64,000 nt of DNA from a phage. The stretch lies in sequence record PZ386970.1. The stretch is one strand, 5' to 3'. This document shows, in pieces, positions 4,538 to 60,482 of this stretch. Every line of letters begins with the position of its first letter. Positions within the stretch are counted from its first letter, which is position 1. A program made the position numbers and the translations under genes. Under the pieces are notes generated by a model. The model ran no database searches. It had not been told where the DNA came from and saw only the letters and a program-made list of their open reading frames with translations.

Positions 4538-6109
4538 ATGAAATTTAATATCTTAAGTTTGTTTGCTCCATGGGCAAAAATGGACGAACGTGATTACAAA
4601 GACCAAGAAAAAGAAAATTTAGAATCTATCACCACACCAAAATTAGACGACGGCGCTAAAGAATACGAAGTATCTGAAAATGAAGCACAGCAAACATATA
4701 ATGCTATGTTTCAGAGAATGTTCGGTAGTCAAGAACCAGGGCTCAAATCAACCCGTGAATTAATCGATACGTATCGAAATTTGATGACGAACTATGAAGT
4801 GGATAATGCAGTCTCTGAAATAGTTTCCGATGCTATCGTATATGAAGATGATACAGAAGTCGTTTCTATAAATTTAGACAACACAAAATTTAGTCCAAAT
4901 ATCAAATCAATGATGTTGGATGAATTTAACGAAGTGTTAAATCATTTATCTTTCCAACGTAAAGGTTCAGACCATTTTAGACGTTGGTATGTAGATTCTC
5001 GAATTTTCTTCCATAAAATTATTGACCCTAAACGCCCTAAAGAAGGTATTAAAGAGCTTCGTCGTTTAGACCCACGTCAAGTTCAATATGTCCGTGAAGT
5101 TATTACAACCACTGAAGCCGGTGTTAAAATAGTCAAGGGTTATAAAGAATATTTCATTTATGACACATCACACGAATCTTATGCTTGTGATGGTCGCATA
5201 TATGAAGCTGGCACAAAAATAAAAATCCCTAAAGCCGCGATTGTTTATGCCCATTCTGGTTTAGTTGATTGTTGTGGTAAAAATATCATCGGTTATTTGC
5301 ATCGGGCTATTAAGCCGGCGAACCAATTAAAACTTCTTGAAGATGCTGTTGTAATTTATCGTATTACTCGTGCTCCAGATCGTCGCGTATGGTACGTTGA
5401 TACAGGTAATATGCCTTCAAGAAAAGCAGCAGAACATATGCAACATGTTATGAATACGATGAAAAACCGTATTGCATATGATGCTACTACAGGCAAGATT
5501 AAAAACCAACAGCATATTATGTCGATGACCGAAGATTATTGGTTACAACGACGTGATGGTAAAGCAGTAACAGAAGTTGATACATTACCAGGTGCAGATA
5601 ATACCGGAAATATGGAAGATGTACGTTGGTTCCGTAATGCGCTTTATATGGCTTTACGTATTCCTATTACCCGTATTCCAAGTGACCAAGGTGGTATACA
5701 GTTTGATGCTGGTACTTCTATTACACGAGATGAATTGTCATTTGGTAAATTTATTCGTGAGCTGCAACATAAATTTGAAGAGATATTCCTAGACCCGCTT
5801 AAAACTAATTTAATTCTTAAAGGAATTATTACAGAAGATGAGTGGAATGATGAAATAAATAATATTAAGATAAAATTTCATCGGGATAGTTATTTCTCGG
5901 AATTAAAGGATGCTGAGATTCTGGAGCGTCGCATTAATATGCTTCAGATGGCCGAACCATTTATTGGTAAATATATTTCCCATAGAACAGCTATGAAAGA
6001 TATTCTTCAGATGTCTGACGAGGAAATTGAACAAGAGGCTAAGCAAATTGAAGAAGAGTCGAAAGAGGCTCGTTTCCAAGACCCCGACCAAGAACAAGAG
6101 GATTTTTAA
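4538..6109 (+). CDS. 20: Portal vertex protein
   Basis: 523-aa ORF; position and size match T4 gp20 (524 aa); TATAAATA at 4502-4509. Confidence 0.93.
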
Positions 6110-9837: not shown

Positions 9838-9861
9838 TCTTAATTGATTAAATCTTATTTT

Positions 9862-9885
9862 GGGAGACTTCGGTCTCCCATTTTT
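9862..9885 (+). terminator. Intrinsic terminator after gene 23 (GGGAGAC-UUCG-GUCUCCC + U tract)
   Basis: Perfect 7-bp GC-rich stem with UUCG tetraloop followed by ATTTTTGGTTTT. Confidence 0.8.
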
Positions 9886-9889
9886 GGTT

Positions 9890-10159
9890 TTATTTCTGTG
9901 CAATTTCGATGTAAGTTTTCAAAATATTTTGCCAATTAGGCATACCTTCTTGGACATATGCCGGAGAACCATCTTTGTTTTTGAATGATGCAAGTTTATC
10001 AGTGGCCCAATAACCTTTAGCTCGAGCTTCAGAATCAACTTTCATCCATACTTTGTTGAAGGCATTACCATTAACTTTTGCACCATATTTTTCTACTAAC
10101 TTAACGGCTTCAGCTTCTAGAACTTTTAAAGTATCTCGTAAGAAACGTGCTTTAGTCAT
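9890..10159 (-). CDS. Hypothetical protein (89 aa) in the 23/24 intergenic region
   Basis: Reverse-strand ORF with GAGGAG RBS 9 nt upstream of ATG and an early-type promoter motif upstream; no recognisable homology. Confidence 0.5.
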   Translation of the reverse strand: MTKARFLRDTLKVLEAEAVKLVEKYGAKVNGNAFNKVWMKVDSEARAKGYWATDKLASFKNKDGSPAYVQEGMPNWQNILKTYIEIAQK

Positions 10160-10189
10160 TTTGTTTACTCCTCTGTAGTTGATAAGTCT

Positions 10190-10219
10190 ATAGTATCACA
10201 TACCAAATACGTTGTAAAC
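10190..10219 (-). promoter_or_regulatory. Early promoter motif (GTTTAC-N18-TACTAT) for the 23/24-gap ORF
   Basis: Minus-strand GTTTACAACGTATTTGGTATGTGATACTATAGAC. Confidence 0.5.
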
Positions 10220-10225
10220 AATCTT

Positions 10226-10233
10226 TATAAATA
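10226..10233 (+). promoter_or_regulatory. Late promoter TATAAATA (gene 24)
   Basis: Exact TATAAATA about 28 bp upstream of the gene 24 ATG. Confidence 0.6.
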
Positions 10234-10260
10234 ATCTATATCACATAAGGAAAAAATGCA

Positions 10261-13232: not shown

Positions 13233-14363
13233 TTATGGATATGTATAGATGATACCAGTTTCCAAAGCAGTTTTATGGATGATGTATCCATTACGTGATT
13301 CTTGAACATCAACTTCTGGGTAGTCTTTCATCATCTTCTGAAGAGTGTAACGATCCAGGTAGTATTTACTATCTGGATCTTCAGTTTTCCAATCTTTACC
13401 TTCTTCAGTCATTTTTTGTATTTCATCCATAACCCACCAACCGCACCAGATGTAAGCTGAAGTACGATGTGGAAGAGGATGAACATAAGGTAATTCACCT
13501 TCTGGTTCTGGAGCAACTTTATCAGTCACTTGAACTTGACCTTCCGCTGTAATAGTTTTGCTATCATAATCAGTAGCAGTAACAGTAGCAGTAACTTCAA
13601 TAGTTTGACTTCCAACAGATGAAGTATCAACTGTATATACATTAGTTGACCCTTCTACAGGAGAAGAATCTTTCTTCCATGAATACGTAATTTGCGCTTC
13701 TTCTGGAGCATCAGTGACATTAGCGGTAAATGTAGCTGAAGCATCTTGCTGAACGTTAATAGAAGGAGGAGTCAATGTAACCTGTGGATTCATTGTCTTC
13801 TTATTAACAGTTAATGATACTTCATTCGAAGTAACTTCCTTTGCATCATAATCTGTTGCGGTTACTTGGGCTACACATTTAATTCTTTTTACTCCACTTG
13901 TAGTTGGAGTATAGCTAAATGTAGAGCTAGTTTCTCCACCAACCTGTGAATCATCTACATACCACTGATACGTAGCAGACGCTCCAACCGGTTGAGAAGT
14001 TAAGGCAGCAGTAAATTGAACTGGGGTTCCAATTACTCCAGCTGAAGGACTATTGGGAGTTACTGCCAAGGTAGTTGTCTGAGTTTTATTTTTAACTGTG
14101 ATAGTTGTTGTCGCTTCAGCCGTTTCCGGGCCTCCTTCAGAAAGTGTATTTGTTGCAACTACCTTAATTGTTTTTGTTCCAGCAGGTCCTTTTAACACAT
14201 AATCAAAAGATTCTGCCGATCCTACTTGAGGAGCATCGTCTACACTCCATGCATAGGTAATAGTTCCACCTCCAGTTTCACCACTGGGTGTAGCAGTAAA
14301 CTGCTTGGTTTCATCAATAACCCCTGTTGGTGTTTTAGGAGTTATATCAACTGTAAAAGCCAT
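13233..14363 (-). CDS. hoc: Highly immunogenic outer capsid protein Hoc (three Ig-like repeats plus capsid-binding domain)
   Basis: 376-aa ORF (T4 Hoc 376 aa); three internally repeated ~90-aa T/S/V-rich modules (YAWSVDD..., YQWYVDD..., YSWKKDS...). Confidence 0.85.
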   Translation of the reverse strand: MAFTVDITPKTPTGVIDETKQFTATPSGETGGGTITYAWSVDDAPQVGSAESFDYVLKGPAGTKTIKVVATNTLSEGGPETAEATTTITVKNKTQTTTLAVTPNSPSAGVIGTPVQFTAALTSQPVGASATYQWYVDDSQVGGETSSTFSYTPTTSGVKRIKCVAQVTATDYDAKEVTSNEVSLTVNKKTMNPQVTLTPPSINVQQDASATFTANVTDAPEEAQITYSWKKDSSPVEGSTNVYTVDTSSVGSQTIEVTATVTATDYDSKTITAEGQVQVTDKVAPEPEGELPYVHPLPHRTSAYIWCGWWVMDEIQKMTEEGKDWKTEDPDSKYYLDRYTLQKMMKDYPEVDVQESRNGYIIHKTALETGIIYTYP

Positions 14364-15041: not shown

Positions 15042-15054
15042 GGTATTTCCTCAT

Positions 15055-15062
15055 TATAAATA
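15055..15062 (+). promoter_or_regulatory. Late promoter TATAAATA (uvsW)
   Basis: Exact TATAAATA about 30 bp upstream of uvsW; uvsW is a late gene in T4. Confidence 0.55.
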
Positions 15063-15091
15063 TAACTATATTTATTACATGGTAATTTGAC

Positions 15092-31133: not shown

Positions 31134-31320
31134 GTTTCAACCCTTTAATAGGAGATAACTCTTTACCCATACGTATATCAGAAGTCCCATCAACCCATTG
31201 AACGGCATACGCTTCGTTGATAATTCCAGCGGCGGTTTTAAATTCGTGGAGAACTTTAAAAATCATCCCAGGAATTCCAACACCTTTTAATTGGACTGTT
31301 TGTGCTATTAAAAATTTCAT
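31123..31320 (-). CDS. Hypothetical protein
   Basis: 65-aa ORF in the 30.x array. Confidence 0.45.
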   Translation of the reverse strand: MKFLIAQTVQLKGVGIPGMIFKVLHEFKTAAGIINEAYAVQWVDGTSDIRMGKELSPIKGLKHVE

Positions 31321-31374
31321 ATTTTTCCACTTACTAAAGAAATCATTATACTCTAATCCGTCCTTGGATGTAAA

Positions 31375-31995
31375 CTACTTAATGAAATTAATTTCTACCG
31401 GATGAACAACAGGTTGAGCAGTGATATATTGAGTAATTGCTTTCATGACTAGAGCTTCAGAACCAGGATTTTTCTCAACGAATTCACGTGCTTGGTTATG
31501 AGCTTCAAGTTCACTTAGTAAACCACTTCGTTGACATCCACGGTCTTGAGTACCCTGTTCAGATAAAAAGGCGACGATGTATTTTTCATCGTCATACGGT
31601 TTAGACGGTTGAGCAAATGTTCCTTTACTTCCAAAAGGAGAGTTATGACGCCACATCACGCCGTGAGGAGTTTCAACCTTCGTATATTCGTGCGGGCCAT
31701 TTTTCTTAGTTTCTTTCCATGGAACTTCATGGACATGGGTATTAGGATTAGGACATTCAATAAAATGCTCATCTAAATCAGTCGAGAATATTAAAGTAAA
31801 ACAATTACTGAATTTACCAACACCTGCCTGATAAATTTTACCTTCAGAAGTTCTAATTTCACAAACCGAGCCGACATCAGTAACTTCTAAAACTTCAAAA
31901 GGCTCGATAAGGTCATATGAGAACATGTTTTTAAGGCGTGGAGTAATATCCCCATTTTTAAAATTCATTTTATAAAAAGTATTAACTTTAAACAT
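31375..31995 (-). CDS. Hypothetical protein (206 aa)
   Basis: Long ORF with good coding appearance; no recognisable motif; larger than any T4 30.x gene at this position as I recall. Confidence 0.55.
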   Translation of the reverse strand: MFKVNTFYKMNFKNGDITPRLKNMFSYDLIEPFEVLEVTDVGSVCEIRTSEGKIYQAGVGKFSNCFTLIFSTDLDEHFIECPNPNTHVHEVPWKETKKNGPHEYTKVETPHGVMWRHNSPFGSKGTFAQPSKPYDDEKYIVAFLSEQGTQDRGCQRSGLLSELEAHNQAREFVEKNPGSEALVMKAITQYITAQPVVHPVEINFIK

Positions 31996-34492: not shown

Positions 34493-35063
34493 AAAAGTTT
34501 CGAATTTGTTCCCAATTCAGAGAACGAAGATTATTACGAGAGTACTGAATTACTTCAATACCAGCTTGTTTTAGAATGTCTGCCCAATTTTCAGGAGATC
34601 GGTCATATAATTCTGCATATACAACCTTTTTAATACCTGACTGCGTAATAGCTTTAGTGCAATCAGGACACGGAGAAAGCGTAGTATATAACGTAGCACC
34701 TTCAATAGAATTACCTTTACGAGCTGCAAACAAAATTGCATTCAATTCCGCATGGATTTCGTTATTAGCAGACCATGCACTATGAGCGGCCCGATGTTCT
34801 TTAGCCAAAACAAAATTATCCACCCGTCCAAATGCTGTAGTGCCTTCTTTATGCCCGGCAACGATGACCGGGCTTGGTTTATTCTTCAACCAACCGTTTT
34901 CGGATGCATGTTCGCAACAGTTTGTACCACCTGAAGGAGAGCCGTTATACCCAGTAGAGATAATGCGTCCATCTTTTTCAATGACCGCACCAACTTTCCA
35001 TGAACAACATTTTGATTCTTGAGAAATCAGATATGCAATCTGAAGGTATGTGCTAGCTTTCAT
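34482..35063 (-). CDS. cd: dCMP deaminase
   Basis: 193-aa ORF; zinc-binding deaminase motifs HAELNA and PCxxC; matches T4 Cd (193 aa). Confidence 0.95.
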   Translation of the reverse strand: MKASTYLQIAYLISQESKCCSWKVGAVIEKDGRIISTGYNGSPSGGTNCCEHASENGWLKNKPSPVIVAGHKEGTTAFGRVDNFVLAKEHRAAHSAWSANNEIHAELNAILFAARKGNSIEGATLYTTLSPCPDCTKAITQSGIKKVVYAELYDRSPENWADILKQAGIEVIQYSRNNLRSLNWEQIRNFCGE

Positions 35064-36055
35064 TATTGAACCTTATTAATATAAGTTAACAACTCTTTAG
35101 TTTGTTCCCAACTGATGCACGCATCGGTAATGGAAACGCCATAGGACATATTATCAGAAATTTTTTGATTTCCTTCATGTAGGAACGATTCTATCATAAT
35201 TCCTTTGACCAAATCATTAGCTGCTAAATTTTTACCAATACCAATTTGATTGCTATAATGCCCATCAGCGTTTGCATGGCTACAGTCAACCATTACATAA
35301 TGATTCAGACCTACTGCCCTTGCTTTGTTAGAAGCTTCTTGAATATCAGAAGAATGATAGTTCGGGCCGTTGGTCCCGCCACGCAATACGATATGCGTAT
35401 TCTGATTACCTTCAGCTTCAACAATGCCTACAGTACCATCGACGTCCATACCCATATACCGATGAGGCCAGGCGGCACTATACATCGCGTCTGTAGCTAC
35501 TTTAATAGAACCATTGGTTGCGTTCTTGAAGCCTACGCACATCGGTAGACCTGAAGCAATTTCACGATGTGTCTGACTTTCAGTCGTACGGGCGCCAATA
35601 GCAACCCATGAGAAAATACCAGAAAGATACTTAATCGTGAATGGGTCTAATACTTCAGTTGCTAATGGAAGTCCCATACGTAGAAGTTTACGACACAATG
35701 TTCGTGCAACTATAAGACCGTGGTTCATATCAAAACTTCCGTCAAGATATGGATCATTTACAAGACCTTTCCAACCTACGGTAGTTCGAGGCTTTTCAAA
35801 ATAAACGCGCATCACTAACAGAACATTAGGAAGACGAGTTTGAAGTTCAGCCAGACGTTTGCCGTATTCAACAGCAGCAATAGGGTCATGAATTGAACAA
35901 GGACCTACAACAATAAGTTTGCGTGGGTCTTCACCATTCATAATCGAATTAACTTGTTCGCGATGAGAAGCCACTTGTGATGCGTAAGCTTCCGACAAAG
36001 GAATAATCTCAGCCAGTTCTTTTGGAGAAATAAGTTTTCCGACGACAGGTAACAT
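35063..36055 (-). CDS. 3-deoxy-D-arabino-heptulosonate 7-phosphate (DAHP) synthase, class I (AroG/F/H family)
   Basis: 330-aa ORF; blocks LIVVGPCSIHDP, VMRVYFEKPRTTVGWKGL, GARTTESQ, VGFKNATNGSIKVA, IVLRGG, ESFLHEGNQ, SITDACI are near-identical to E. coli AroG; stop overlaps the cd start (TAATG). Confidence 0.9.
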   Translation of the reverse strand: MLPVVGKLISPKELAEIIPLSEAYASQVASHREQVNSIMNGEDPRKLIVVGPCSIHDPIAAVEYGKRLAELQTRLPNVLLVMRVYFEKPRTTVGWKGLVNDPYLDGSFDMNHGLIVARTLCRKLLRMGLPLATEVLDPFTIKYLSGIFSWVAIGARTTESQTHREIASGLPMCVGFKNATNGSIKVATDAMYSAAWPHRYMGMDVDGTVGIVEAEGNQNTHIVLRGGTNGPNYHSSDIQEASNKARAVGLNHYVMVDCSHANADGHYSNQIGIGKNLAANDLVKGIMIESFLHEGNQKISDNMSYGVSITDACISWEQTKELLTYINKVQ

Positions 36056-41184: not shown

Positions 41185-41595
41185 CTACTTTTTCTTATGT
41201 TGGATATTCCAAGGCGGGTTGAACTTTTTGATAAAAAGTGGTTCTTCAAGGTCCATTGTTGCGATGGTCATTGAACCAAGTTCATTGGTGACTGAAAGGT
41301 CAAAACATTGGCGGGCCCAGAATTCAACCTTTTTGCCTTGCATTAAGGCATCCAAAATCATAAGTGATTTTCTTGAATCTGAAGTCTGGTCTTTTCGATT
41401 TATGGCTGTTCGATAATAGTTAATGCGTTTCTTTAAATTCTTGGTTTTACCAATATACACAAGTTCGTCATCTATAGCAATAGCGTATATGACATTTTTC
41501 TTATTAGGGACATCAACTGTTTTAATTGTTGCATCTTCTAATAGCTCCAATTCTGTATATTTAATAAAGGAATATTCGGCGGCAATATCTTTCAT
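41185..41595 (-). CDS. denA: Endonuclease II (host DNA degradation)
   Basis: 136-aa ORF (T4 DenA 136 aa); GIY-YIG-like N-terminus (VIYAIAIDDELVYIGKTKNLKKRINYY). Confidence 0.85.
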   Translation of the reverse strand: MKDIAAEYSFIKYTELELLEDATIKTVDVPNKKNVIYAIAIDDELVYIGKTKNLKKRINYYRTAINRKDQTSDSRKSLMILDALMQGKKVEFWARQCFDLSVTNELGSMTIATMDLEEPLFIKKFNPPWNIQHKKK

Positions 41596-41621: not shown

Positions 41622-42797
41622 TTAGAAATATTTTTTGTATGAATTGATTACATTTTGGTCTACATCATTATCAATTTGTGCGACAAGATAAGAACTGATT
41701 TCAACTTCCTGAGGAGCTGCTTGAACTAAATCAGAGTTCAGATATTCACGAATCCAAGGATATGGATGCTTGGTCGGAGCATCAGTGATTGGGCATGGCA
41801 AACCGCACTGTTTCATACGAGACACAGTCAAGTAATCAACAAAAGCACACATACTCTGCGTATTGATACCTGGACATGTACCGTCTTTAAAGAGGTGTGC
41901 AGCCCATTCCTTCTCTTGACTATTTACTTCCATAAAAATGTCAACTGCTTCTTGTTCGCATTCTTTAGCAATTTGAACCCACTCATCACCGTCGGTACCA
42001 GATTGAAGTTGACGGATAATGTACTGAGTACCCTTGAGATGGAGTTGTTCGTCACGAGCAATGAACTTCATAATCTTTGCATTGCCTTCCATAATTTCCA
42101 TATTTTTATGGAAGTTGAAAGTACATGCAAATGACACGTAAAAACGAATAGCTTCTAAGGCGTTGATAACATGCAAACAGAGATAAAGAGACTTCATTAA
42201 ATCACGCTTGGCGTTAAACATTATTTCTTCGTACATCTCAATATCATTCTGCTGGCATGAGCCTAGTGAATACTCATAATTTTCCTTAGCATTTTCCCAA
42301 TGGCGAGTCTTGACTAGAACATCATCGTAATATTTACCTATTGATTCAGCTCGTTTCATGATTGCTTCGTCTAATACAATTTCATCAAATACCTTAGATG
42401 GATCTGTATAAAGATTTCGCATAATATGAGTATACGAACGAGAGTGAATAGTTTCACTGAATGTCCATGTTGCAACCCACGTATCTAATGAAGGGTCAGA
42501 AATCAGTGCCATAAGTACCGCAGATGGGGCCCTGCCTTGGATAGAATCTAATAATGATTGATACTTAAGATTGTTTGTAAAGATGTCCTGTTGGAACTGA
42601 GGAAGCTTATTGAACTGCGCAGAGTCCAACATCAAGTTTACCTCTTCTGGGCGCCAGAAAAACGACAATTGCTTTTCAATAAGTTCTTCGAAAACTTTAT
42701 GACGCTGAATATCATACCGTGCAAGACCAAGACCAGAACCAAAGAACATCGGTTCATTCAAAACATCGACTTGTTGTGTGTTAAAAACTGTACTCAT
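41622..42797 (-). CDS. nrdB: Ribonucleotide reductase small subunit
   Basis: 391-aa uninterrupted ORF; di-iron/tyrosyl radical class Ia R2 features; T4 NrdB is 388 aa. Confidence 0.93.
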   Translation of the reverse strand: MSTVFNTQQVDVLNEPMFFGSGLGLARYDIQRHKVFEELIEKQLSFFWRPEEVNLMLDSAQFNKLPQFQQDIFTNNLKYQSLLDSIQGRAPSAVLMALISDPSLDTWVATWTFSETIHSRSYTHIMRNLYTDPSKVFDEIVLDEAIMKRAESIGKYYDDVLVKTRHWENAKENYEYSLGSCQQNDIEMYEEIMFNAKRDLMKSLYLCLHVINALEAIRFYVSFACTFNFHKNMEIMEGNAKIMKFIARDEQLHLKGTQYIIRQLQSGTDGDEWVQIAKECEQEAVDIFMEVNSQEKEWAAHLFKDGTCPGINTQSMCAFVDYLTVSRMKQCGLPCPITDAPTKHPYPWIREYLNSDLVQAAPQEVEISSYLVAQIDNDVDQNVINSYKKYF

Positions 42798-42852
42798 TAT
42801 ATTTTCTCACTTAGTTATTAACTCATCCATGAGTAAATTATAATCAAAAGTC

Positions 42853-45108
42853 TTAAAGCTTACAAGCAGAGCAATCTTCGGCTTTAGGTGTTTCTAATTC
42901 GTAGTCATCTGTACCTGACCCATCACGAGTGTTATGATAGTAGAGGTTTTTTCCGCCAAAGTACCAGAAGTAAAGCAGATCGTCAAGCATTACCGACATT
43001 GGCACTTTACCTTTCTCAAATACTGCAGGGTCATAGTAAGTATTAGCAGAAGCAGATTGGCACACCCATTTCAACATGATAGCAACTTGGGACAAATAAG
43101 GTTTATTACCTTTCTTAGCAAGTTTCCACGCGTAGTCGTAAAGACTCATGTTATGTTCGATATTAGGAACAACCTGTCGGAAGTTGCCTTCTTTAGATTC
43201 TTTAATACTTACAGGTCCACGAGGTGGTTCTATACCGTTTGTGCTATTTGAGACTTGACTGCTTGATTCGCACGGCATGAGTGCAGACAACGTTGAGTTA
43301 CGAATTCCGTGTTCTTTGAGTTCAGCTCGAAGTTCTTCCCAGTCACAGACGTAGTTCGGGGCTGCGATTTGGTCAATCTTTTTATTGTACCAGTCAATAG
43401 GTAATTCGCCTCTAGACCATTTAGTGTCTGAATAATACTCACAAGGTCCTTTTTCTTTGGCGAGTTTGATTGAAGCTTTGATAAGGCCATATTGTAATCT
43501 CTCGAACAATTCATGAGTCAAATCGTTAGCGTCTTCATATGAAGCAAAGTTAGAAGCTAACCATGCAGCATAGTTCGTAACACCAATACCAAGATTACGA
43601 CGCTTTTTAGCTTTTAAAGCTTCTGGGACCGGATAATCTTGATAGTCTAACAGGTTATCAAGTGCACGTACTTGTACTTCAGCAAGTTCATTAATTTTAT
43701 CTTGGTCTTGCCAATCAAATTTATCTAATACAAAAGCAGATAATGTGCATAAACCAATTTCAGCATCAGGACCATTCACATCATTAGTTGGAATAGCGAT
43801 TTCACAACATAAGTTACTCTGTCGAATTGGAGCTTTTTCACGAATAAATGGAGTGTAGTTATTCGTGTTATCAACAAACTGTGGATAAATTCGAGCAGTA
43901 CCAGAACGTTCAGTCATGAACAATTCAAAGAGTTCTAGTGCTTTGATTCTTTTCTTTCTGATTGTTGGGTCTTTTTCAGCTTTCTCATAAAGCTCACGGA
44001 ATTTATCTTGATCTTCAAAGAACGAGTAGTATAGTTCGCCTGACATTTCGTGAGGGCTAAATAAAGTAATATAATCATTTTTACCAAGGCGTTCCATCAT
44101 AAGGTTATTAATCTGAATTCCGTAGTCCATATGTCGAATACGGTTTTCATCCACGCCTTTGTTATTTTTCAGAACTAATAGGTTCTCTACTTCTAAGTGC
44201 CACATCGGATAATACGCTGTAGCAGCACCACCACGAATACCACCTTGAGAACAAGATTTTACTGCAGTTTGGAAATGTTTCCAGAATGGAATAACACCCG
44301 TATGTCGAACTTCACCCATACCGATCTTAGAACCTTCTGCACGAAGCATACCAACGTTGATACCAATACCAGCTCGTTTAGAAATATATTCAATAATTGA
44401 TGCTGAAGTTTTGTTAATAGATTTTAACGAATCACCGGCTTCAATAACTACACAACTAGAGAACTGGCGAGTTGGAGTACGAGCACCTGCCATAATTGGG
44501 GTTGGCAATGAAACTTGATGAGTAGAAACGGCATCATAAAAACGAATAATATGTTTCAAACGGTCATGGGTTTCGTCTTGGTGTAAGGCCATACCAATAG
44601 CCATGATAGCAAACTGAGGAGTTTCATAAATCTTCCCAGTTGTTTTATCTTTAACTAGATATTTTTCTTTAAGCTGCATAGCACCAGCATAAGTCAGGTC
44701 AAAGTCTCGTTCATGTTTAATCTGTGAATCGAGATAAATGATTTCTTCTGCTGAATATTGAGACAACAGCTCAGGGTCGTATTTGCCTTCATTAACACAG
44801 TAAGAAATATGGTCGATAAAAGCAGGTGGTTCAAACTGCCCATATACATCTTTACGAAGTGCAAACATTAGCCCTTTGGCGGCGACATACTGATAATCAG
44901 GTTCTTCGACAGAAATCGAGTTAGCTGCAACTTTAATACAAATCTTCTGGATATCTTTGGTGCTCATCCCATCAACCAGATGAGTCTTAATTTCTTCATA
45001 CAATTCGTATGGGTCGATTTGTGTTCCTTCACACTGCCAAGTTAAGACTTGAATAATTTTCTGTGCATCAAAATTTTGGGATACACCACTGCTCTTAGTT
45101 ACTTGCAT
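42853..45108 (-). CDS. nrdA: Ribonucleotide reductase large subunit
   Basis: 751-aa ORF (T4 NrdA 754 aa); class Ia R1 catalytic motifs; C-terminal CSACKL. Confidence 0.95.
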   Translation of the reverse strand: MQVTKSSGVSQNFDAQKIIQVLTWQCEGTQIDPYELYEEIKTHLVDGMSTKDIQKICIKVAANSISVEEPDYQYVAAKGLMFALRKDVYGQFEPPAFIDHISYCVNEGKYDPELLSQYSAEEIIYLDSQIKHERDFDLTYAGAMQLKEKYLVKDKTTGKIYETPQFAIMAIGMALHQDETHDRLKHIIRFYDAVSTHQVSLPTPIMAGARTPTRQFSSCVVIEAGDSLKSINKTSASIIEYISKRAGIGINVGMLRAEGSKIGMGEVRHTGVIPFWKHFQTAVKSCSQGGIRGGAATAYYPMWHLEVENLLVLKNNKGVDENRIRHMDYGIQINNLMMERLGKNDYITLFSPHEMSGELYYSFFEDQDKFRELYEKAEKDPTIRKKRIKALELFELFMTERSGTARIYPQFVDNTNNYTPFIREKAPIRQSNLCCEIAIPTNDVNGPDAEIGLCTLSAFVLDKFDWQDQDKINELAEVQVRALDNLLDYQDYPVPEALKAKKRRNLGIGVTNYAAWLASNFASYEDANDLTHELFERLQYGLIKASIKLAKEKGPCEYYSDTKWSRGELPIDWYNKKIDQIAAPNYVCDWEELRAELKEHGIRNSTLSALMPCESSSQVSNSTNGIEPPRGPVSIKESKEGNFRQVVPNIEHNMSLYDYAWKLAKKGNKPYLSQVAIMLKWVCQSASANTYYDPAVFEKGKVPMSVMLDDLLYFWYFGGKNLYYHNTRDGSGTDDYELETPKAEDCSACKL

Positions 45109-45195
45109 ATATTCCTCAGTATAGGTTGATAGACATTACTCCAAACGGGATAGTATTTATCCCGTTAATTTATTATACACTTTTAAACTGAAGCG

Positions 45196-45450
45196 TTAAT
45201 TATCCTCAGCAATAATTTCTTCATATTCTTTAGGAGTCAAGACTGTAATATCGAAATAAACCAGAGGCTCTTTTTCCATACCGAATCCACCACAGAATTC
45301 ACGATATTCATAAATTCGTTCATGTGAATGGCAAATGAATCGTTCACCTTTAACTGTGATTTCACTATTCGGTGAAGGGATATCTAGTTCGGTAGGATTT
45401 TTCATTTCAAAAATTGTGGTGCCATATGAATTAATAAAACGTAAAATCAT
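45196..45450 (-). CDS. Hypothetical protein between td and nrdA
   Basis: Start moved to ATG adjacent to the td stop (MILRFINSYG...); about 84 aa. Confidence 0.45.
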   Translation of the reverse strand: MILRFINSYGTTIFEMKNPTELDIPSPNSEITVKGERFICHSHERIYEYREFCGGFGMEKEPLVYFDITVLTPKEYEEIIAEDN

Positions 45451-45451
45451 T

Positions 45452-46312
45452 TTATACCGCCATTTTAGCTTTGATAGCTGGATGTGATTCGTAATTTTTA
45501 AGAATGAAATCACTCAGATTCATATGCTCTGTTACCCAATGAAGCTGTAATGTCGTGCTCCAATCAGAGAATCCTTCAGGCCAATCAATTTTAAGTTCAC
45601 ACAGTTCTTTAGGCTCACGACGTAAAACTTCTTTGCATTGCTCTACGTGGTTGCTGTAGATATGCGTATTGCCGCCTGAGAACACTAAATCACCCGGGAT
45701 AAGATTACACATCTTAGCCACAATATGCGTCAAGGCGGCGTACGAGGCAATGTTGAATGGCAAGCCCAAGAAAACATCAACACTTCTCTGGTACCATTGT
45801 AAATCAAGATGTCCATTACGCACATTGAACTGATAGAACATGTGGCAAGGAGGAAGAGCCATTTGATTTATTTCGGCCGGATTCCAGGCAGAAACAATTT
45901 GACGACGATCAGTTGGTAATTTTTTAATACGGTCGATTGTTTCAACTAATTGGTCCACACCACCGAAATCACGCCATTGTTTACCATATATAGGACCAAG
46001 TTCACCACTATGATAACCAAGGTCTTTTGCCTGATTTTCGTAATTATCGTCCCAAATAGTTTTACCTTCAATTAGGCTACCATGAGTACGAAGTCGTAAT
46101 TCATTAACATTAGTAGAACCAGACATGAACCACAGTAACTCGGCAATACAAGCTTTCCATGCTAATTTCTTAGTTGTTACTGCAGGGAATCCTTTAGTCA
46201 GGTCCCAACGTAATTTAGTTCCGAACAGGGCAATAGTGCCGGTACCTGTACGGTCGTCTGTTTCATAGCCATTTTCTAAGATATCTTTAATCAAATCTTG
46301 ATATTGTTTCAT
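45452..46312 (-). CDS. td: Thymidylate synthase
   Basis: 286-aa uninterrupted ORF; near-identical to T4 Td over most of its length (MKQYQDLIKDI...ALPPCHMFYQFNV...). Confidence 0.95.
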   Translation of the reverse strand: MKQYQDLIKDILENGYETDDRTGTGTIALFGTKLRWDLTKGFPAVTTKKLAWKACIAELLWFMSGSTNVNELRLRTHGSLIEGKTIWDDNYENQAKDLGYHSGELGPIYGKQWRDFGGVDQLVETIDRIKKLPTDRRQIVSAWNPAEINQMALPPCHMFYQFNVRNGHLDLQWYQRSVDVFLGLPFNIASYAALTHIVAKMCNLIPGDLVFSGGNTHIYSNHVEQCKEVLRREPKELCELKIDWPEGFSDWSTTLQLHWVTEHMNLSDFILKNYESHPAIKAKMAV

Positions 46313-48631: not shown

Positions 48632-48676
48632 TATATTTACCTTTATTTAGATTATTTAATTTATTTACAGTTGGTT

Positions 48677-48700
48677 GCTACGACACTTATACCTCGTAGC
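48677..48700 (-). promoter_or_regulatory. Hairpin in the gene 32 5' leader (candidate translational operator element)
   Basis: GCTACGA-N10-TCGTAGC inverted repeat between the late promoter and the gene 32 start, followed by an A/U-rich unstructured stretch. Confidence 0.45.
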
Positions 48701-48710
48701 TGGTATGATT

Positions 48711-48718
48711 TATTTATA
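48711..48718 (-). promoter_or_regulatory. Late promoter TATAAATA (gene 32)
   Basis: Exact TATAAATA on the - strand about 80 bp upstream of the gene 32 ATG, ahead of a leader hairpin. Confidence 0.5.
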
Positions 48719-48747
48719 AAGTAATTTTAACACACAAGAAATAAAGC

Positions 48748-56753: not shown

Positions 56754-59700
56754 ATGGCTACATTAAAACAGATACAATTTAAAAGAAGCAAAGTGGCAGG
56801 AGTTAATCCTACTGCAGCACAATTAGCCGAAGGCGAATTAGCGATAAACTTAAAAGACCGAACTCTTTTTACTAAAGATGACCTCGGTAATATTATTAGC
56901 CTAGGCTTTGCTAAGGGCGGGGATATTAACGGTAATGTAACTCAAACCGGCGATTATTTACAAAACGGCACATATAATCTTAATGGAAACCAGTTTGTTT
57001 ATGCAGGAAAGTATATTGAATTCTTGCCAAAAACTGCTGGAAACGGCGCCTGGGCTAACCAACATCTGAATAAAGCCCCTATCTTTACAGATTTGAGTTC
57101 AACTACTTCAACTTCTGAATATCATCCGCTGATTAAACAACGCTATAAAGATGGAACTTTTTCTGTCGGTACATTAGTAAATGAAGGAAGTTTTAAGATT
57201 CATTATATCAATGAATCTGGGGATTCGAAATATTGGACTTTTAATCGAAACGGTAATTTCATCGTAGATTCTGGTAGTATTGAAGTTCGTGCTGGTAATA
57301 TTTCCGCTTCTGGAAATATTAATTCAGCTACTGGTGTAATTTCTGCACCTCGTGTTATCACAAAAAATATTAATTTAAGTACAAAGACTTTTATTCCTAA
57401 TAACGACGCTGGGTATGATTTAGTTTCTTTGCCTACTTGGATTTATAATCCGCCGGCAGATGGTTCTGACCGTAATACAAATGGTCTTAACTACATCCGT
57501 AAGATGAGGGCTTCAAATACTTCTAGTATTTTCCATGAAATAGTTGATTGTCGTTCAGGAAAGCCACAAGAAATTTCTTGGTGGACAGGCGTAGGTCCAG
57601 AATCTTTCCAATGGGCGTTTGATACTTCTGGGCGTATTACCGCAGGTAAATCTATTTCAGTAGGTCTTCCTGATAACGGTTCAAATGGACGTTATCCTTT
57701 AGATTCTGCCATTTCTATTGGTATTGCAATTGGTGATAACGACACCGGTATTAAATGGGTCCGCGACGGTGTTATTGATTTCATGGCTAACGGTATTTCA
57801 TCCGCTACCATTTTGAATAACGGTATTAACAGCACCAAGAAATTGATGGTTGGTTATAGCCGAGATTCAGGTTCTACTTGGGATTTCCCAAATAACAACC
57901 AAGCAATGTTTACTGCTCGTACTGATATTGATGGCAATAATAACGGTGATGGTCAGACTCATATCGGTTATAACAGCAATTCTAAAATGTATCACTATTT
58001 CCGTGGCACGGGTCGTATGGCTGTTGGTATGGCAGAAGGTTTAATTGTTGAGCCTGGCATTTTAGATATTAAAACCGGTTCAAATTCGTTAAATTTGCGT
58101 GCTGATGGTACCATCGCTTCGGTTCAAACGTTAAAACTTAATAATGGATTATATTTTAATGGTGATGGAACTAATGCTTCTCTAGTTTTTAAAGCAGCTT
58201 CAGGTATTGATGGTACTAAGCAAATAATGTGGGAAGGTGGTACTCGTGCTGGGCAGAATAAAAGCTACGTAACTGTTAAAGCATGGGGTAATTCATTTAA
58301 CGCATCCGGCGATCGTAATCGTGAAACTGTATTTGAAGTTAGTGACGGGCAAGGATATTATTTTTATTCACAGCGTGTGGCTCCAAGTGGCTCTGAAACT
58401 ACTGGGCCTGTTGTAACCCAGTTCAATGGACAAGTTAATGCTAGAGGAAGCTTAATAACCGACGGAAGTCTTAGAGTTAACGGATTAAGCACTCTAGTTG
58501 GCAACGTTACAATGAATAATGGATTGTTTGTTCAAGGTGGTGCCTCAATTACCGGACAGGTTAAAATTGGTGGAACAGCTGATGCATTAAGAATTTGGAA
58601 TGCTGAATACGGGGCTATTTTCCGCCGCTCGGAAGCATCATTATATATTATTCCGACTCCTAAAGATGCTGGTGAAAGCGGTGGAATAAGTAATCTTAGA
58701 CCATTGATAATAGAACTGAACACTGGCACAGTTAAAATGTCGCATGATGTTCATTTAGGAGATTCTGGATCTGGTACAGGATTATTACAAGTAAGTAATA
58801 GTCTTAAAACTATTAAAATGATATGCCCAGTAACTATTAACGAACGTAATGCAGCGCTTACTCTAGATTCTCCTTCATCTTCTTCTGCTAATTATTTACA
58901 GGGTTCTAAAGCTGGAACTAGATCGTGGTATGTTGGTCTTGGTGGCTCAGGAAATGATTTATCACTTTATAGTCAATCTTATGGCCATGGTATTGTTATA
59001 AGCGATAATTTCGTGTCAATTACTAAACCATTAAAAGTTGGTAATGCTCAATTCGGTACCGATGGTAACATCACTGGCGGTACTGGTAATTTTGCTAACT
59101 TGAATACCACAATAAATAACCTTAAGACGGATATTGTGTCGAGTTACCCAATTGGTGCTCCGATTCCTTGGCCTACTGATACACCTCCTGAAGGTTATGC
59201 CATAATGGAAGGCCAGACGTTTGATGTTGGCTTGTATCCTAAGTTAGCTGCGGTGTATCCTTCTGGCGCTCTGCCTGATATGCGTGGTCAGACGATTAAA
59301 GGTAAACCATCTGGGCGTGCTGTATTGAGTACAGAAGCAGACGGTGTTAAGTCACATAGTCATAGTGCAAGTGCATCAAGCACAGATTTGGGTACTAAGA
59401 CCACTTCTAGTTTTGATTACGGTAGCAAAACGACTTCAAGCTTTGATTATGGTACTAAGACCAGTAATACCACTGGCAACCACAACCATACAGTGAGTGG
59501 TAATACTAGTTCAGCAGGAGCTCACCAACACGCTCGTTCAGGCCCTCAAATGCAAGGCGGCATACCAACTAGCATATTCTATGATGGATACAATAGCGCG
59601 GGTCCAAACGGCAACGCTAAAATCACTGGAACCGTGAGTGGTGCTACTGCATCGTCGAATATGGCCAAAACTTCTTCAGATGGTGCCCACACCCACAGTT

Positions 59701-59900
59701 GGTCAGGAACCACTAGTGCTACGGGTAACCATGCTCATACCGTGGGTATTGGTGCTCATACCCATTCGGTAGGTATTGGTGCTCATACTCATACTGTTGC
59801 AATTGGTTCCCATGGACATACAATAACTGTAAATGCCACAGGAAATACAGAAAACACAGTTAAAAACGTTGCTTTTAACTATATCGTTCGTTTAGCATAA
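56754..59900 (+). CDS. 37: Long tail fibre distal subunit gp37 (receptor-binding needle with His-X-His repeats)
   Basis: 1048-aa ORF (T4 gp37 1026 aa); N-terminus shares motifs with gp34/gp36; C-terminal repeated HxH motifs ([24 protein letters not shown]). Confidence 0.9.
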
Positions 59901-59903
59901 GGA

Positions 59904-59926
59904 GAAGGGACTTCTGTCCCTTTTTA
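59904..59926 (+). terminator. Terminator after gene 37
   Basis: GGGAC-TTCT-GTCCC followed by TTTTTAT. Confidence 0.7.
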
Positions 59927-59930
59927 TAAT

Positions 59931-60482
59931 ATGAAACTCTATCACTATTATTTTGACACTAAAGAATTTTACAAAGAAGAAAATTATAAACCATTAAAAG
60001 GCGTAGGATTTCCGGCTCATTCGACACCAAAAAAACCTTTAGACCCTAAAGAAGGCTATGCTGTTATATTTGACGAACGCGAACAAGAATGGGTATATGT
60101 TGAAGACCATCGCGGAAAAACAGTATGGACTTATGATAAACAAAAAATTGTTATTGACACTCCAGGTGCTCTTCAAAATGTTACTACAGAAGAACCTGGT
60201 GAATTTGACATTTGGACCGACGACGGGTGGAAGGAAGATGAAGCATATAAACGTGTAGTTCAACGTGATAAGAAAATTCATGAACTCTATAAATTATTCA
60301 GTGTTTTAAGTTCTCTTATTGACGCAGAGGTTGCTAATAGAGAAGAAAAACGAAAATTTAAAGAGCTCAAAAAATTCTTTGCCCTTTTAGAAAAACATGA
60401 ACATCTTGGCGGCGAATTCCCTAAATTCCCTGACCTTGAAAACAAATCTATTATCAAAGCGATTATAAATATCTTTAAGTAA
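59931..60482 (+). CDS. 38: Tail fibre assembly chaperone gp38 (T4 type)
   Basis: 183-aa ORF; MKLYHYYFDTKEFYKEENYKP... and FFALLEKHEHLGGEFP match T4 gp38 from memory. Confidence 0.88.
   Translation: MKLYHYYFDTKEFYKEENYKPLKGVGFPAHSTPKKPLDPKEGYAVIFDEREQEWVYVEDHRGKTVWTYDKQKIVIDTPGALQNVTTEEPGEFDIWTDDGWKEDEAYKRVVQRDKKIHELYKLFSVLSSLIDAEVANREEKRKFKELKKFFALLEKHEHLGGEFPKFPDLENKSIIKAIINIFK
60464..60471 (+). promoter_or_regulatory. Late promoter TATAAATA (holin t), inside the gene 38 3' end
   Basis: Exact TATAAATA about 20 bp upstream of the t ATG. Confidence 0.55.

Follow-up and report, generated by a model that had tools for sequence, protein, structure and literature searches.

Intron-less td and nrdB genes and vacant homing endonuclease positions in an RB69-like Mosigvirus phage

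Do the td and nrdB genes of this phage carry the group I introns known from T4, and are the positions at which T4 holds homing endonuclease genes (HEGs) occupied? In the T4 annotation, td contains an intron with I-TevI and nrdB an intron with a relic of I-TevIII; segD lies between 23 and 24, segE between inh and uvsW, and mobE with nrdB.1 between nrdA and nrdB, while segG adjoins gene 32. The two introns and the seg genes at 23/24 and near uvsW had been named correctly in the original prediction on this DNA. We examined a 64-kb stretch (64,000 nucleotides of record PZ386970.1, hereafter the window); the remaining HEG loci of T4, among them the nrdD intron, fall outside it.

The window is part of the genome of an RB69-like coliphage and extends from gene 17 to motA. 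It is fully collinear with RB69 (NC_004928), at 94-97% nucleotide identity over most of its length and down to 82-90% at the tail-fibre end, and its first 25 kb are 98% identical to ESh15, p000v and JS09; identity to these four phages is 95-98%. Such identity at the nucleotide level, along with the collinearity shared with RB69 and further members of the genus, places the phage in Mosigvirus. The cluster denA-nrdB-nrdA-nrdA.2-td-frd has an identical gene order in RB69, and the 6-kb nucleotide-metabolism region is ~95% identical between the two at the nucleotide level. Td has 286 aa in both phages, NrdB has 390 aa in RB69 and 391 aa in the window, and the nrdA ORFs are of equal length. RB69 and the window are also alike in being without introns, mobE, segD, segE and segG. 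It should be noted that hoc is shorter in the window than in RB69.

We found td and nrdB to be single continuous ORFs which require no splicing, and the positions of the T-even introns and of the seg and mob genes to be vacant (Table 1). The td product matches the whole of the Pfam thymidylate synthase model PF00303 (1-266/266, E = 4e-98) and the nrdB product matches residues 9-271/281 of the ribonucleotide reductase small chain model PF00268 (E = 2e-37). In global protein alignments with just 2-3 gap columns, Td shares 238/286 identities with spliced T4 Td, NrdB 338/388 with spliced T4 NrdB (3 gap columns) and NrdA 653/754 with T4 NrdA, which is 754 aa long (3 gap columns). The genes are orthologous to those of T4, in the same order and at 83-87% protein identity, and the sequence around the insertion sites is conserved enough for these to be placed to the single base. 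The T4 td exons meet at 45764|45763 with no added sequence. In an alignment with the genomic nrdB loci of T4 and FL31, the T4 nrdB exons likewise meet at 42125|42124 with nothing added, and the 598-nt intron of T4 and the 1091-nt intron of FL31 both map precisely to this junction. Since MAFFT at first misplaced the gap when td loci with and without the intron were compared, the alignment was repeated on exons spliced by coordinates. Over the region covered, T4 has introns of 1017 nt in td and 598 nt in nrdB, together with four HEGs which are free-standing; the window has none of these.

Table 1 Features of the window which bear on intron and homing endonuclease content. Positions are those of the window; | marks the point of insertion.
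Feature	Position	Strand	Remarks
23/24 intergenic region	9838..10260		423 bp; position of segD in T4
89-aa ORF in 23/24 region	9890..10159	-	phrog_6003, no assigned function; also annotated in p000y
inh/uvsW spacer	15042..15091		50 bp; empty segE slot
206-aa ORF	31375..31995		phrog_17531, no Pfam match; absent from RB69
DAHP synthase gene	35063..36055		absent from RB69
denA (endonuclease II)	41185..41595	-	136 aa; Pfam PF01541, E = 2.5e-6; orthologue of T4/RB69 denA
nrdB (class Ia ribonucleotide reductase small subunit)	41622..42797	-	uninterrupted 391-aa ORF; orthologue of RB69 nrdB
Empty nrdB intron insertion site	42124..42125	-	...TTTGCAT|GTACTTTC...; exon 1 ends at 42125, exon 2 starts at 42124
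nrdB/nrdA spacer	42798..42852		55 bp; mobE and nrdB.1 here in T4, nothing in the window
nrdA (ribonucleotide reductase large subunit)	42853..45108	-	uninterrupted 751-aa ORF
nrdA.2 homologue (DUF5496)	45196..45450	-	Pfam PF17600, E = 4.5e-13, residues 22-101; phrog_2458
td (thymidylate synthase)	45452..46312	-	uninterrupted 286-aa ORF
Empty td intron insertion site	45763..45764	-	...TTCTTGGGC|TTGCCATTC...; exon 1 ends at 45764, exon 2 starts at 45763
Equivalent of the I-TevI cleavage motif (-27..-23)	45786..45790	-	CAGAG
32/59 spacer	48632..48747		116 bp; gene 59 identified by its gp59 domains; segG adjoins gene 32 in T4

Neither td nor nrdB contains an insertion which splits the ORF at a known site, and no group I catalytic core was detected by covariance model. 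The Rfam model RF00028 (Intron_gpI), run in permissive mode, had no match in the 40-48 kb part of the window at E ≤ 10, nor in the entire window at E ≤ 1. The same permissive search recovered all five control introns at 35-42 bits, comprising the two T4 introns (40.3 and 35.7 bits) and those of FL31, G2285 and JM17. At the Rfam gathering threshold the window was also blank, but so was the T4 locus with its two real introns, and we therefore rejected the gathering-threshold search as a test. The claim of the original prediction that the phage is intron-free at td and nrdB, which are uninterrupted ORFs of 286 and 391 aa, was borne out by the exon alignments and by this control-validated search.

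We then considered the endonucleases themselves. None of the T4 proteins SegD, SegE, I-TevI, I-TevIII and MobE, nor the FL31 endonuclease, gave a tblastn match below E = 0.2 in the window; the best matches of MobE and SegD had E values of 6.6 and 0.73, the latter not at the 23/24 junction. HMMs run against the six-frame translation of the window gave best E values of 1.9 (GIY-YIG) and 0.2 (HNH), compared with 1e-48 to 1e-53 at the control loci. When window-specific and unnamed ORFs (≥ 110 aa) were scanned against Pfam and PHROG, an HNH or GIY-YIG domain was identified in DenA alone; ORFs shorter than 110 aa were covered by the six-frame HMMs and tblastn, and through their orthology to non-HEG genes of RB69 and T4. 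DenA is the sole GIY-YIG protein in the window, contains the only match to a GIY..YIG regular expression across the six frames, and directly adjoins nrdB. It was ruled out as a homing endonuclease, being the orthologue of T4 denA and without a DNA-binding module. The small ORF in the 23/24 region was rejected as a segD remnant, having no similarity to segD and no GIY-YIG signal. No slot therefore holds a GIY-YIG homing endonuclease of the Seg or I-TevI type (domain plus NUMOD/DNA-binding module), and no HNH homing endonuclease of the Mob or I-TevIII type was found next to or inside nrdB (tblastn E ≥ 0.2). The further claim that seg-type GIY-YIG genes are lacking at the 23/24 and inh/uvsW junctions holds for both of these short slots, which lie far outside the segment 41622-46312 for which it was made.

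It is highly improbable that the window conceals, at some other place, an intron or endonuclease which has diverged and is not related in type to those of T4. The insensitivity of the Rfam gathering threshold would allow for such an element, as would the presence of the 206-aa ORF and a few others without a Pfam match. Against it, all genes of the window are full-length and collinear with RB69, and RF00028 had no match at E ≤ 1 anywhere in the window. The only insertions of at least 500 bp relative to RB69 are the DAHP synthase gene and the 206-aa ORF, both of which are widespread in Mosigvirus. Neither was accepted as a HEG, the first encoding a DAHP synthase and the second belonging to a PHROG of unknown function without nuclease signal.

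Comparison with other members of the genus indicates what the vacant positions may represent. A chimeric probe consisting of the td exons of the window and the T4 intron was found to separate genera poorly by identity, and nrdA.2 coverage and taxonomy were used instead. Within Mosigvirus, a td intron is present in G2285, JM17 and LF82-4, at the site equivalent to 45764|45763 in the window. That of G2285 is 99.7% identical to the T4 intron and lies within a T4-type tract from about -49 to +36. An nrdB intron is found in FL31 and about 14 others; in FL31 it occupies T4's site and has T4-type flanks. The nrdB intron of FL31 and others contains a 269-aa HNH ORF, whereas the corresponding site in the window is unoccupied. 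In p000y the inh/uvsW point is occupied by an insertion of 742 bp which contains a SegE homologue, and identity in its flanks falls to 91% at the 5' end of uvsW, as against 98% on the inh side. The phages with these elements share their genus and flanking genes with the window and have Mosigvirus-type exons away from the insertion, but they differ in the T-even-type co-conversion tracts around the elements, where the sites of the window are unoccupied. Extra sequence in the 6-kb region of the relatives represents a HEG only in FL31 (the nrdB intron); in the others it consists of small ORFs in the frd/frd.1 or the td/frd interval, one of which was tested and had no Pfam match.

Because the two introns and a SegE homologue occur at these same sites in some Mosigvirus genomes, with T4-type tracts, we infer that the vacant positions represent empty homing sites, the genus being polymorphic in this respect. 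The phage is very probably an RB69-like Mosigvirus with intron- and HEG-free alleles throughout the denA-nrdB-nrdA-nrdA.2-td-frd cluster and at the 23/24, inh/uvsW and 32/59 junctions. A co-infecting, compatible relative with the introns or HEGs would be predicted to cut and convert such sites, and this appears to have occurred in a minority of Mosigvirus genomes. Unoccupied sites are the normal state of RB69-type phages, as already described: group I introns were not found in RB69 (PMC1524935), which was also predicted to be without HEGs (PMC2993671), and the intron-less, HEG-less state is that of roughly nine in ten sequenced relatives of RB69. The absence of introns and HEGs from RB69-type phages is thus known from the literature of 2006-2010, and our finding, while correct, is an ordinary one; what is new is the context, in which some Mosigvirus phages do carry these introns, or a homologue of SegE, exactly at these sites.

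The intron-less state could also be secondary, an ancestral td and/or nrdB intron having been precisely lost, for instance by recombination with an intron-less relative. Precise loss is predicted by the cycle of homing endonuclease gain, decay and loss, and the patchy distribution of introns and HEGs in Mosigvirus suggests that gains, and possibly losses, are ongoing. The td gene is moreover a mosaic, exon 2 of the window being 95.5% identical to the intron-bearing LF82-4 and just 80.8% identical to RB69. However, the exon flanks at both sites are of Mosigvirus type without a T4-type co-conversion tract, unlike those of G2285 and FL31, a search for intron and HEG remnants in the window found none, and the intron-less state is that of the majority, including RB69. 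We consider such a loss improbable, and favour alleles in which the homing sites are simply empty.

The original prediction had further proposed that the phage is a potential recipient for intron homing in co-infection. This is plausible, with Mosigvirus introns present at the exact T4 sites, but it needs to be qualified with regard to both the donor and the target. T4 itself is unlikely to be the donor, as a complete exclusion of T4 by RB69 is reported and recombination between the two was not seen (PMC2993671). With regard to the target, the window has the I-TevI homing-site motif 5'-CNNNG-3' at 23-27 nt upstream of the td insertion site, in the form CAGAG. The motif is CAACG in T4, in RB69 and in four other intron-less Mosigvirus loci (FL31, LF82-41, phi25-307 and NHEP36), as well as in 3/3 intron-bearing Mosigvirus td loci examined. 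The difference between CAGAG and CAACG is synonymous (Gln-Arg) and retains the C and G of CNNNG while replacing the native central triplet AAC. A further 5 mismatches with T4 td fall within +1..+12 of the insertion site, and all of the changes at the motif and around the insertion site are synonymous.

Judging by the sequence of the site, these substitutions might lower cleavage by I-TevI and so make the td allele a naturally resistant target and a poor recipient, although we regard this as unlikely. Not every CNNNG triplet is cleaved by I-TevI, and many are cut poorly or not at all (PMC5009752). All three intron-bearing loci have CAACG. On the other hand, the critical C and G are still present, and an A in the first and third positions of the triplet, as in AGA, agrees with the reported preferences of I-TevI (PMC4065259). 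The enzyme tolerates many substitutions, broadly though within limits (PMC5009752, PMC4065259). The allele is also common, dozens of records being 96-99% identical across the site. There is a correspondingly slim chance that the window's td belongs to a widespread Mosigvirus class of alleles which, by drift or by selection, evades cleavage by I-TevI; if so, this class would represent natural target-site escape within the homing endonuclease life cycle. An empty site open to homing from a compatible relative remains our preferred reading.

The suggestion that the absence of introns is a useful marker for lineage placement was not upheld, as their presence is patchy among phages which are 95-98% identical, such as p000y and p000v. 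Sequence identity to RB69 gives the lineage directly. The value of the locus is more modest: T-even-type introns in td and nrdB, as well as a segE homologue, are present in some members of the genus and absent from others, with clear co-conversion tracts, so that the genus may provide natural pairs of donor and recipient in which to study homing among related phages. The phage of the window would be an empty-site recipient.

A minor observation concerns the start of nrdA.2. The ORF as listed reaches a GTG at 45513 and overlaps the 3' end of td. The true start is most likely near 45450, since the Pfam match begins at residue 22 and the RB69 annotation of nrdA.2 stops just before td.

The window, which extends from gene 17 to motA, was collinear with RB69 at 94-97% identity across most of its length, and over the first 25 kb it shared 98% identity with ESh15, p000v and JS09, all of them members of Mosigvirus; judged by sequence, its source is an RB69-like Mosigvirus. 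Alignment to RB69 broke down at window 13508-14026 and 56986-60462, in hoc (376 aa in the window, vs 471 aa in RB69) and in the distal tail-fibre genes 37/38, which is the usual pattern of a hypervariable region.

In the T4 record, td is split by an intron carrying I-TevI and nrdB by an intron carrying an I-TevIII relic, while segD lies at 23/24 and segE at inh/uvsW, as the original prediction had stated. Within the region covered by the window, T4 also carries mobE and nrdB.1 at nrdA/nrdB, and segG adjoining gene 32. T4 splice junctions were worked out from the sequence, giving a td intron of 1017 nt (exon 1 ...CTTGGGT, intron TAATTG...TAATG, exon 2 CTACCG...) and an nrdB intron of 598 nt.

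Genes, intergenic slots and other features of the window
Feature	Coordinates	Strand	Size
nrdB	41622..42797	-	391 aa
nrdA	42853..45108	-	751 aa
nrdA.2 homologue (DUF5496)	about 45196..45450	-	
td	45452..46312	-	286 aa
denA	41185..41595		
inh/uvsW slot	15042..15091		50 bp
nrdB/nrdA slot	42798..42852		55 bp
32/59 slot	48632..48747		116 bp
23/24 slot	9838..10260		423 bp
DAHP synthase	35063..36055	-	330 aa
phrog_17531 ORF	31375..31995	-	206 aa

The interval 41622-46312 contains four genes, all on the minus strand, with denA (endonuclease II) downstream of nrdB and frd upstream of td. When the T4 exons were aligned to the window, those of td mapped to adjacent bases (exon 1 ending at 45764, exon 2 starting at 45763), as did those of nrdB (42125 and 42124), with 0 nt of inserted sequence in either gene. 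Global alignment of Td, NrdB and NrdA to the spliced T4 proteins ran end to end at 83-87% identity with 2-3 gap columns; Td matched the Pfam model for thymidylate synthase over its full length (E 4e-98, positions 1-266/266), and NrdB matched the ribonucleotide reductase small-chain model nearly in full. Both td and nrdB are thus uninterrupted, as predicted.

An Rfam scan at the gathering threshold found no match in the window, a result which is worthless alone because the T4 control locus with its two bona fide introns was also blank. This threshold is 50 bits, and both T4 group I introns (locus L003, 4900-12200) fall below it, so a blank result at this level does not show a phage region to be intron-free. 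We therefore relied on the Intron_gpI model in permissive mode with positive controls, which recovered both T4 introns (40.3 and 35.7 bits) and those of three Mosigvirus relatives (35-42 bits). In this mode nothing was matched at E ≤ 10 within window 40-48 kb or at E ≤ 1 across all 64 kb, and td and nrdB are intron-free by this search.

The absence of seg-type homing endonuclease genes (HEGs) at 23/24 and inh/uvsW was also borne out. All four slots that hold such genes in T4 are short in the window, at 50-423 bp. The 23/24 slot holds an 89-aa minus-strand ORF (phrog_6003, function unknown), also annotated in p000y, which lacks any GIY-YIG signal. Searching the window by tblastn with T4 SegD, SegE, I-TevI, I-TevIII and MobE and a full-length I-TevIII-like protein gave nothing below E 0.2, and small GIY-YIG and HNH HMMs run against its six-frame translation reached at best E 1.9 and 0.2, vs 1e-48 to 1e-53 at control loci. 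The single GIY-YIG protein in the window is DenA, which was ruled out as a homing enzyme, being the orthologue of T4 endonuclease II. Only two insertions of at least 500 bp were found relative to RB69, one encoding DAHP synthase and the other a 206-aa product without a known function, and no nuclease domain was found in the other unnamed ORFs that are 110 aa or longer.

The DAHP synthase is AroG-like (Pfam PF00793, E 4e-75; phrog_5045) and is inserted between cd and cd.2. It occurs in ~140 phage records at ≥ 95% identity, and is therefore a common Mosigvirus auxiliary metabolic gene which is missing in RB69 itself. The 206-aa ORF (within window 31137-31995; no Pfam match) occupies the place of RB69 gp30.6 and is found in ~114 phage records at 90-99% identity.

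The observation on td, nrdB and the slots is confirmed. Group I introns had been looked for in RB69 and not found (PMC1524935), and a 2010 review gives RB69 as predicted to be without HEGs (PMC2993671), so the observation restates an already known property of this phage type.

The intron and HEG sites are not inert in Mosigvirus, those in td, nrdB and inh/uvsW being filled in a minority of genomes. In FL31, a 1091-nt insertion with T4-like ends lies exactly at the T4 nrdB site and encodes a full-length 269-aa HNH endonuclease; its flanks are T-even-type for ~190 nt upstream (mosaic) and ~24 nt downstream, the rest of the exons being Mosigvirus. The td intron of G2285 is 99.7% identical to that of T4, within a T4-type exon tract from about -49 to +36 (~85 bp) of the insertion site, while JM17 and LF82-4 carry a ~90% identical variant with a minimal tract. 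These four introns have the appearance of recent homing between genera. At ≥ 95% identity, ~15 distinct phages covered denA together with nrdB exon 2 and its intron, and ~19 records among the matches listed covered Mosigvirus-type nrdA.2 with the td exons and intron, so that each intron occurs in roughly one in ten of about 190-240 related records. In p000y (MK047718, 15107-15838), the gene for a 243-aa protein homologous to T4 SegE (49% identity, E 7e-77, PF19835) is inserted exactly in the inh/uvsW spacer; identity is 91% at the 5' end of uvsW vs 98% on the inh side, consistent with co-conversion. Separately, NHEP36 has an extra 115-aa ORF between td and frd (5628-5975; no Pfam match), and two further relatives (L006 and L007) carry one or two additional short ORFs between frd and frd.1; the window lacks every one of these.

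Introns at the same sites in relatives support the view that td and nrdB alleles of the window type may receive them, and the predicted role as a potential recipient is plausible. Intron absence, proposed as a lineage marker, is a poor one and is not supported in this use, since presence or absence differs among near-identical phages.

At the I-TevI cleavage motif (-27 to -23), window td reads CAGAG (45786-45790, minus strand) vs CAACG, a synonymous change in the Gln-Arg codons (CAG AGA vs CAA CGC). CAACG itself was read in T4 and RB69, and likewise in the further Mosigvirus loci compared, four without and three with the intron. CAGAG, a candidate cleavage target, retains the critical C and G. 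Many central triplets are reported to be poorly cut by I-TevI, with A/T-rich ones favoured (PMC5009752; PMC4065259). The CAGAG allele is common in the database.
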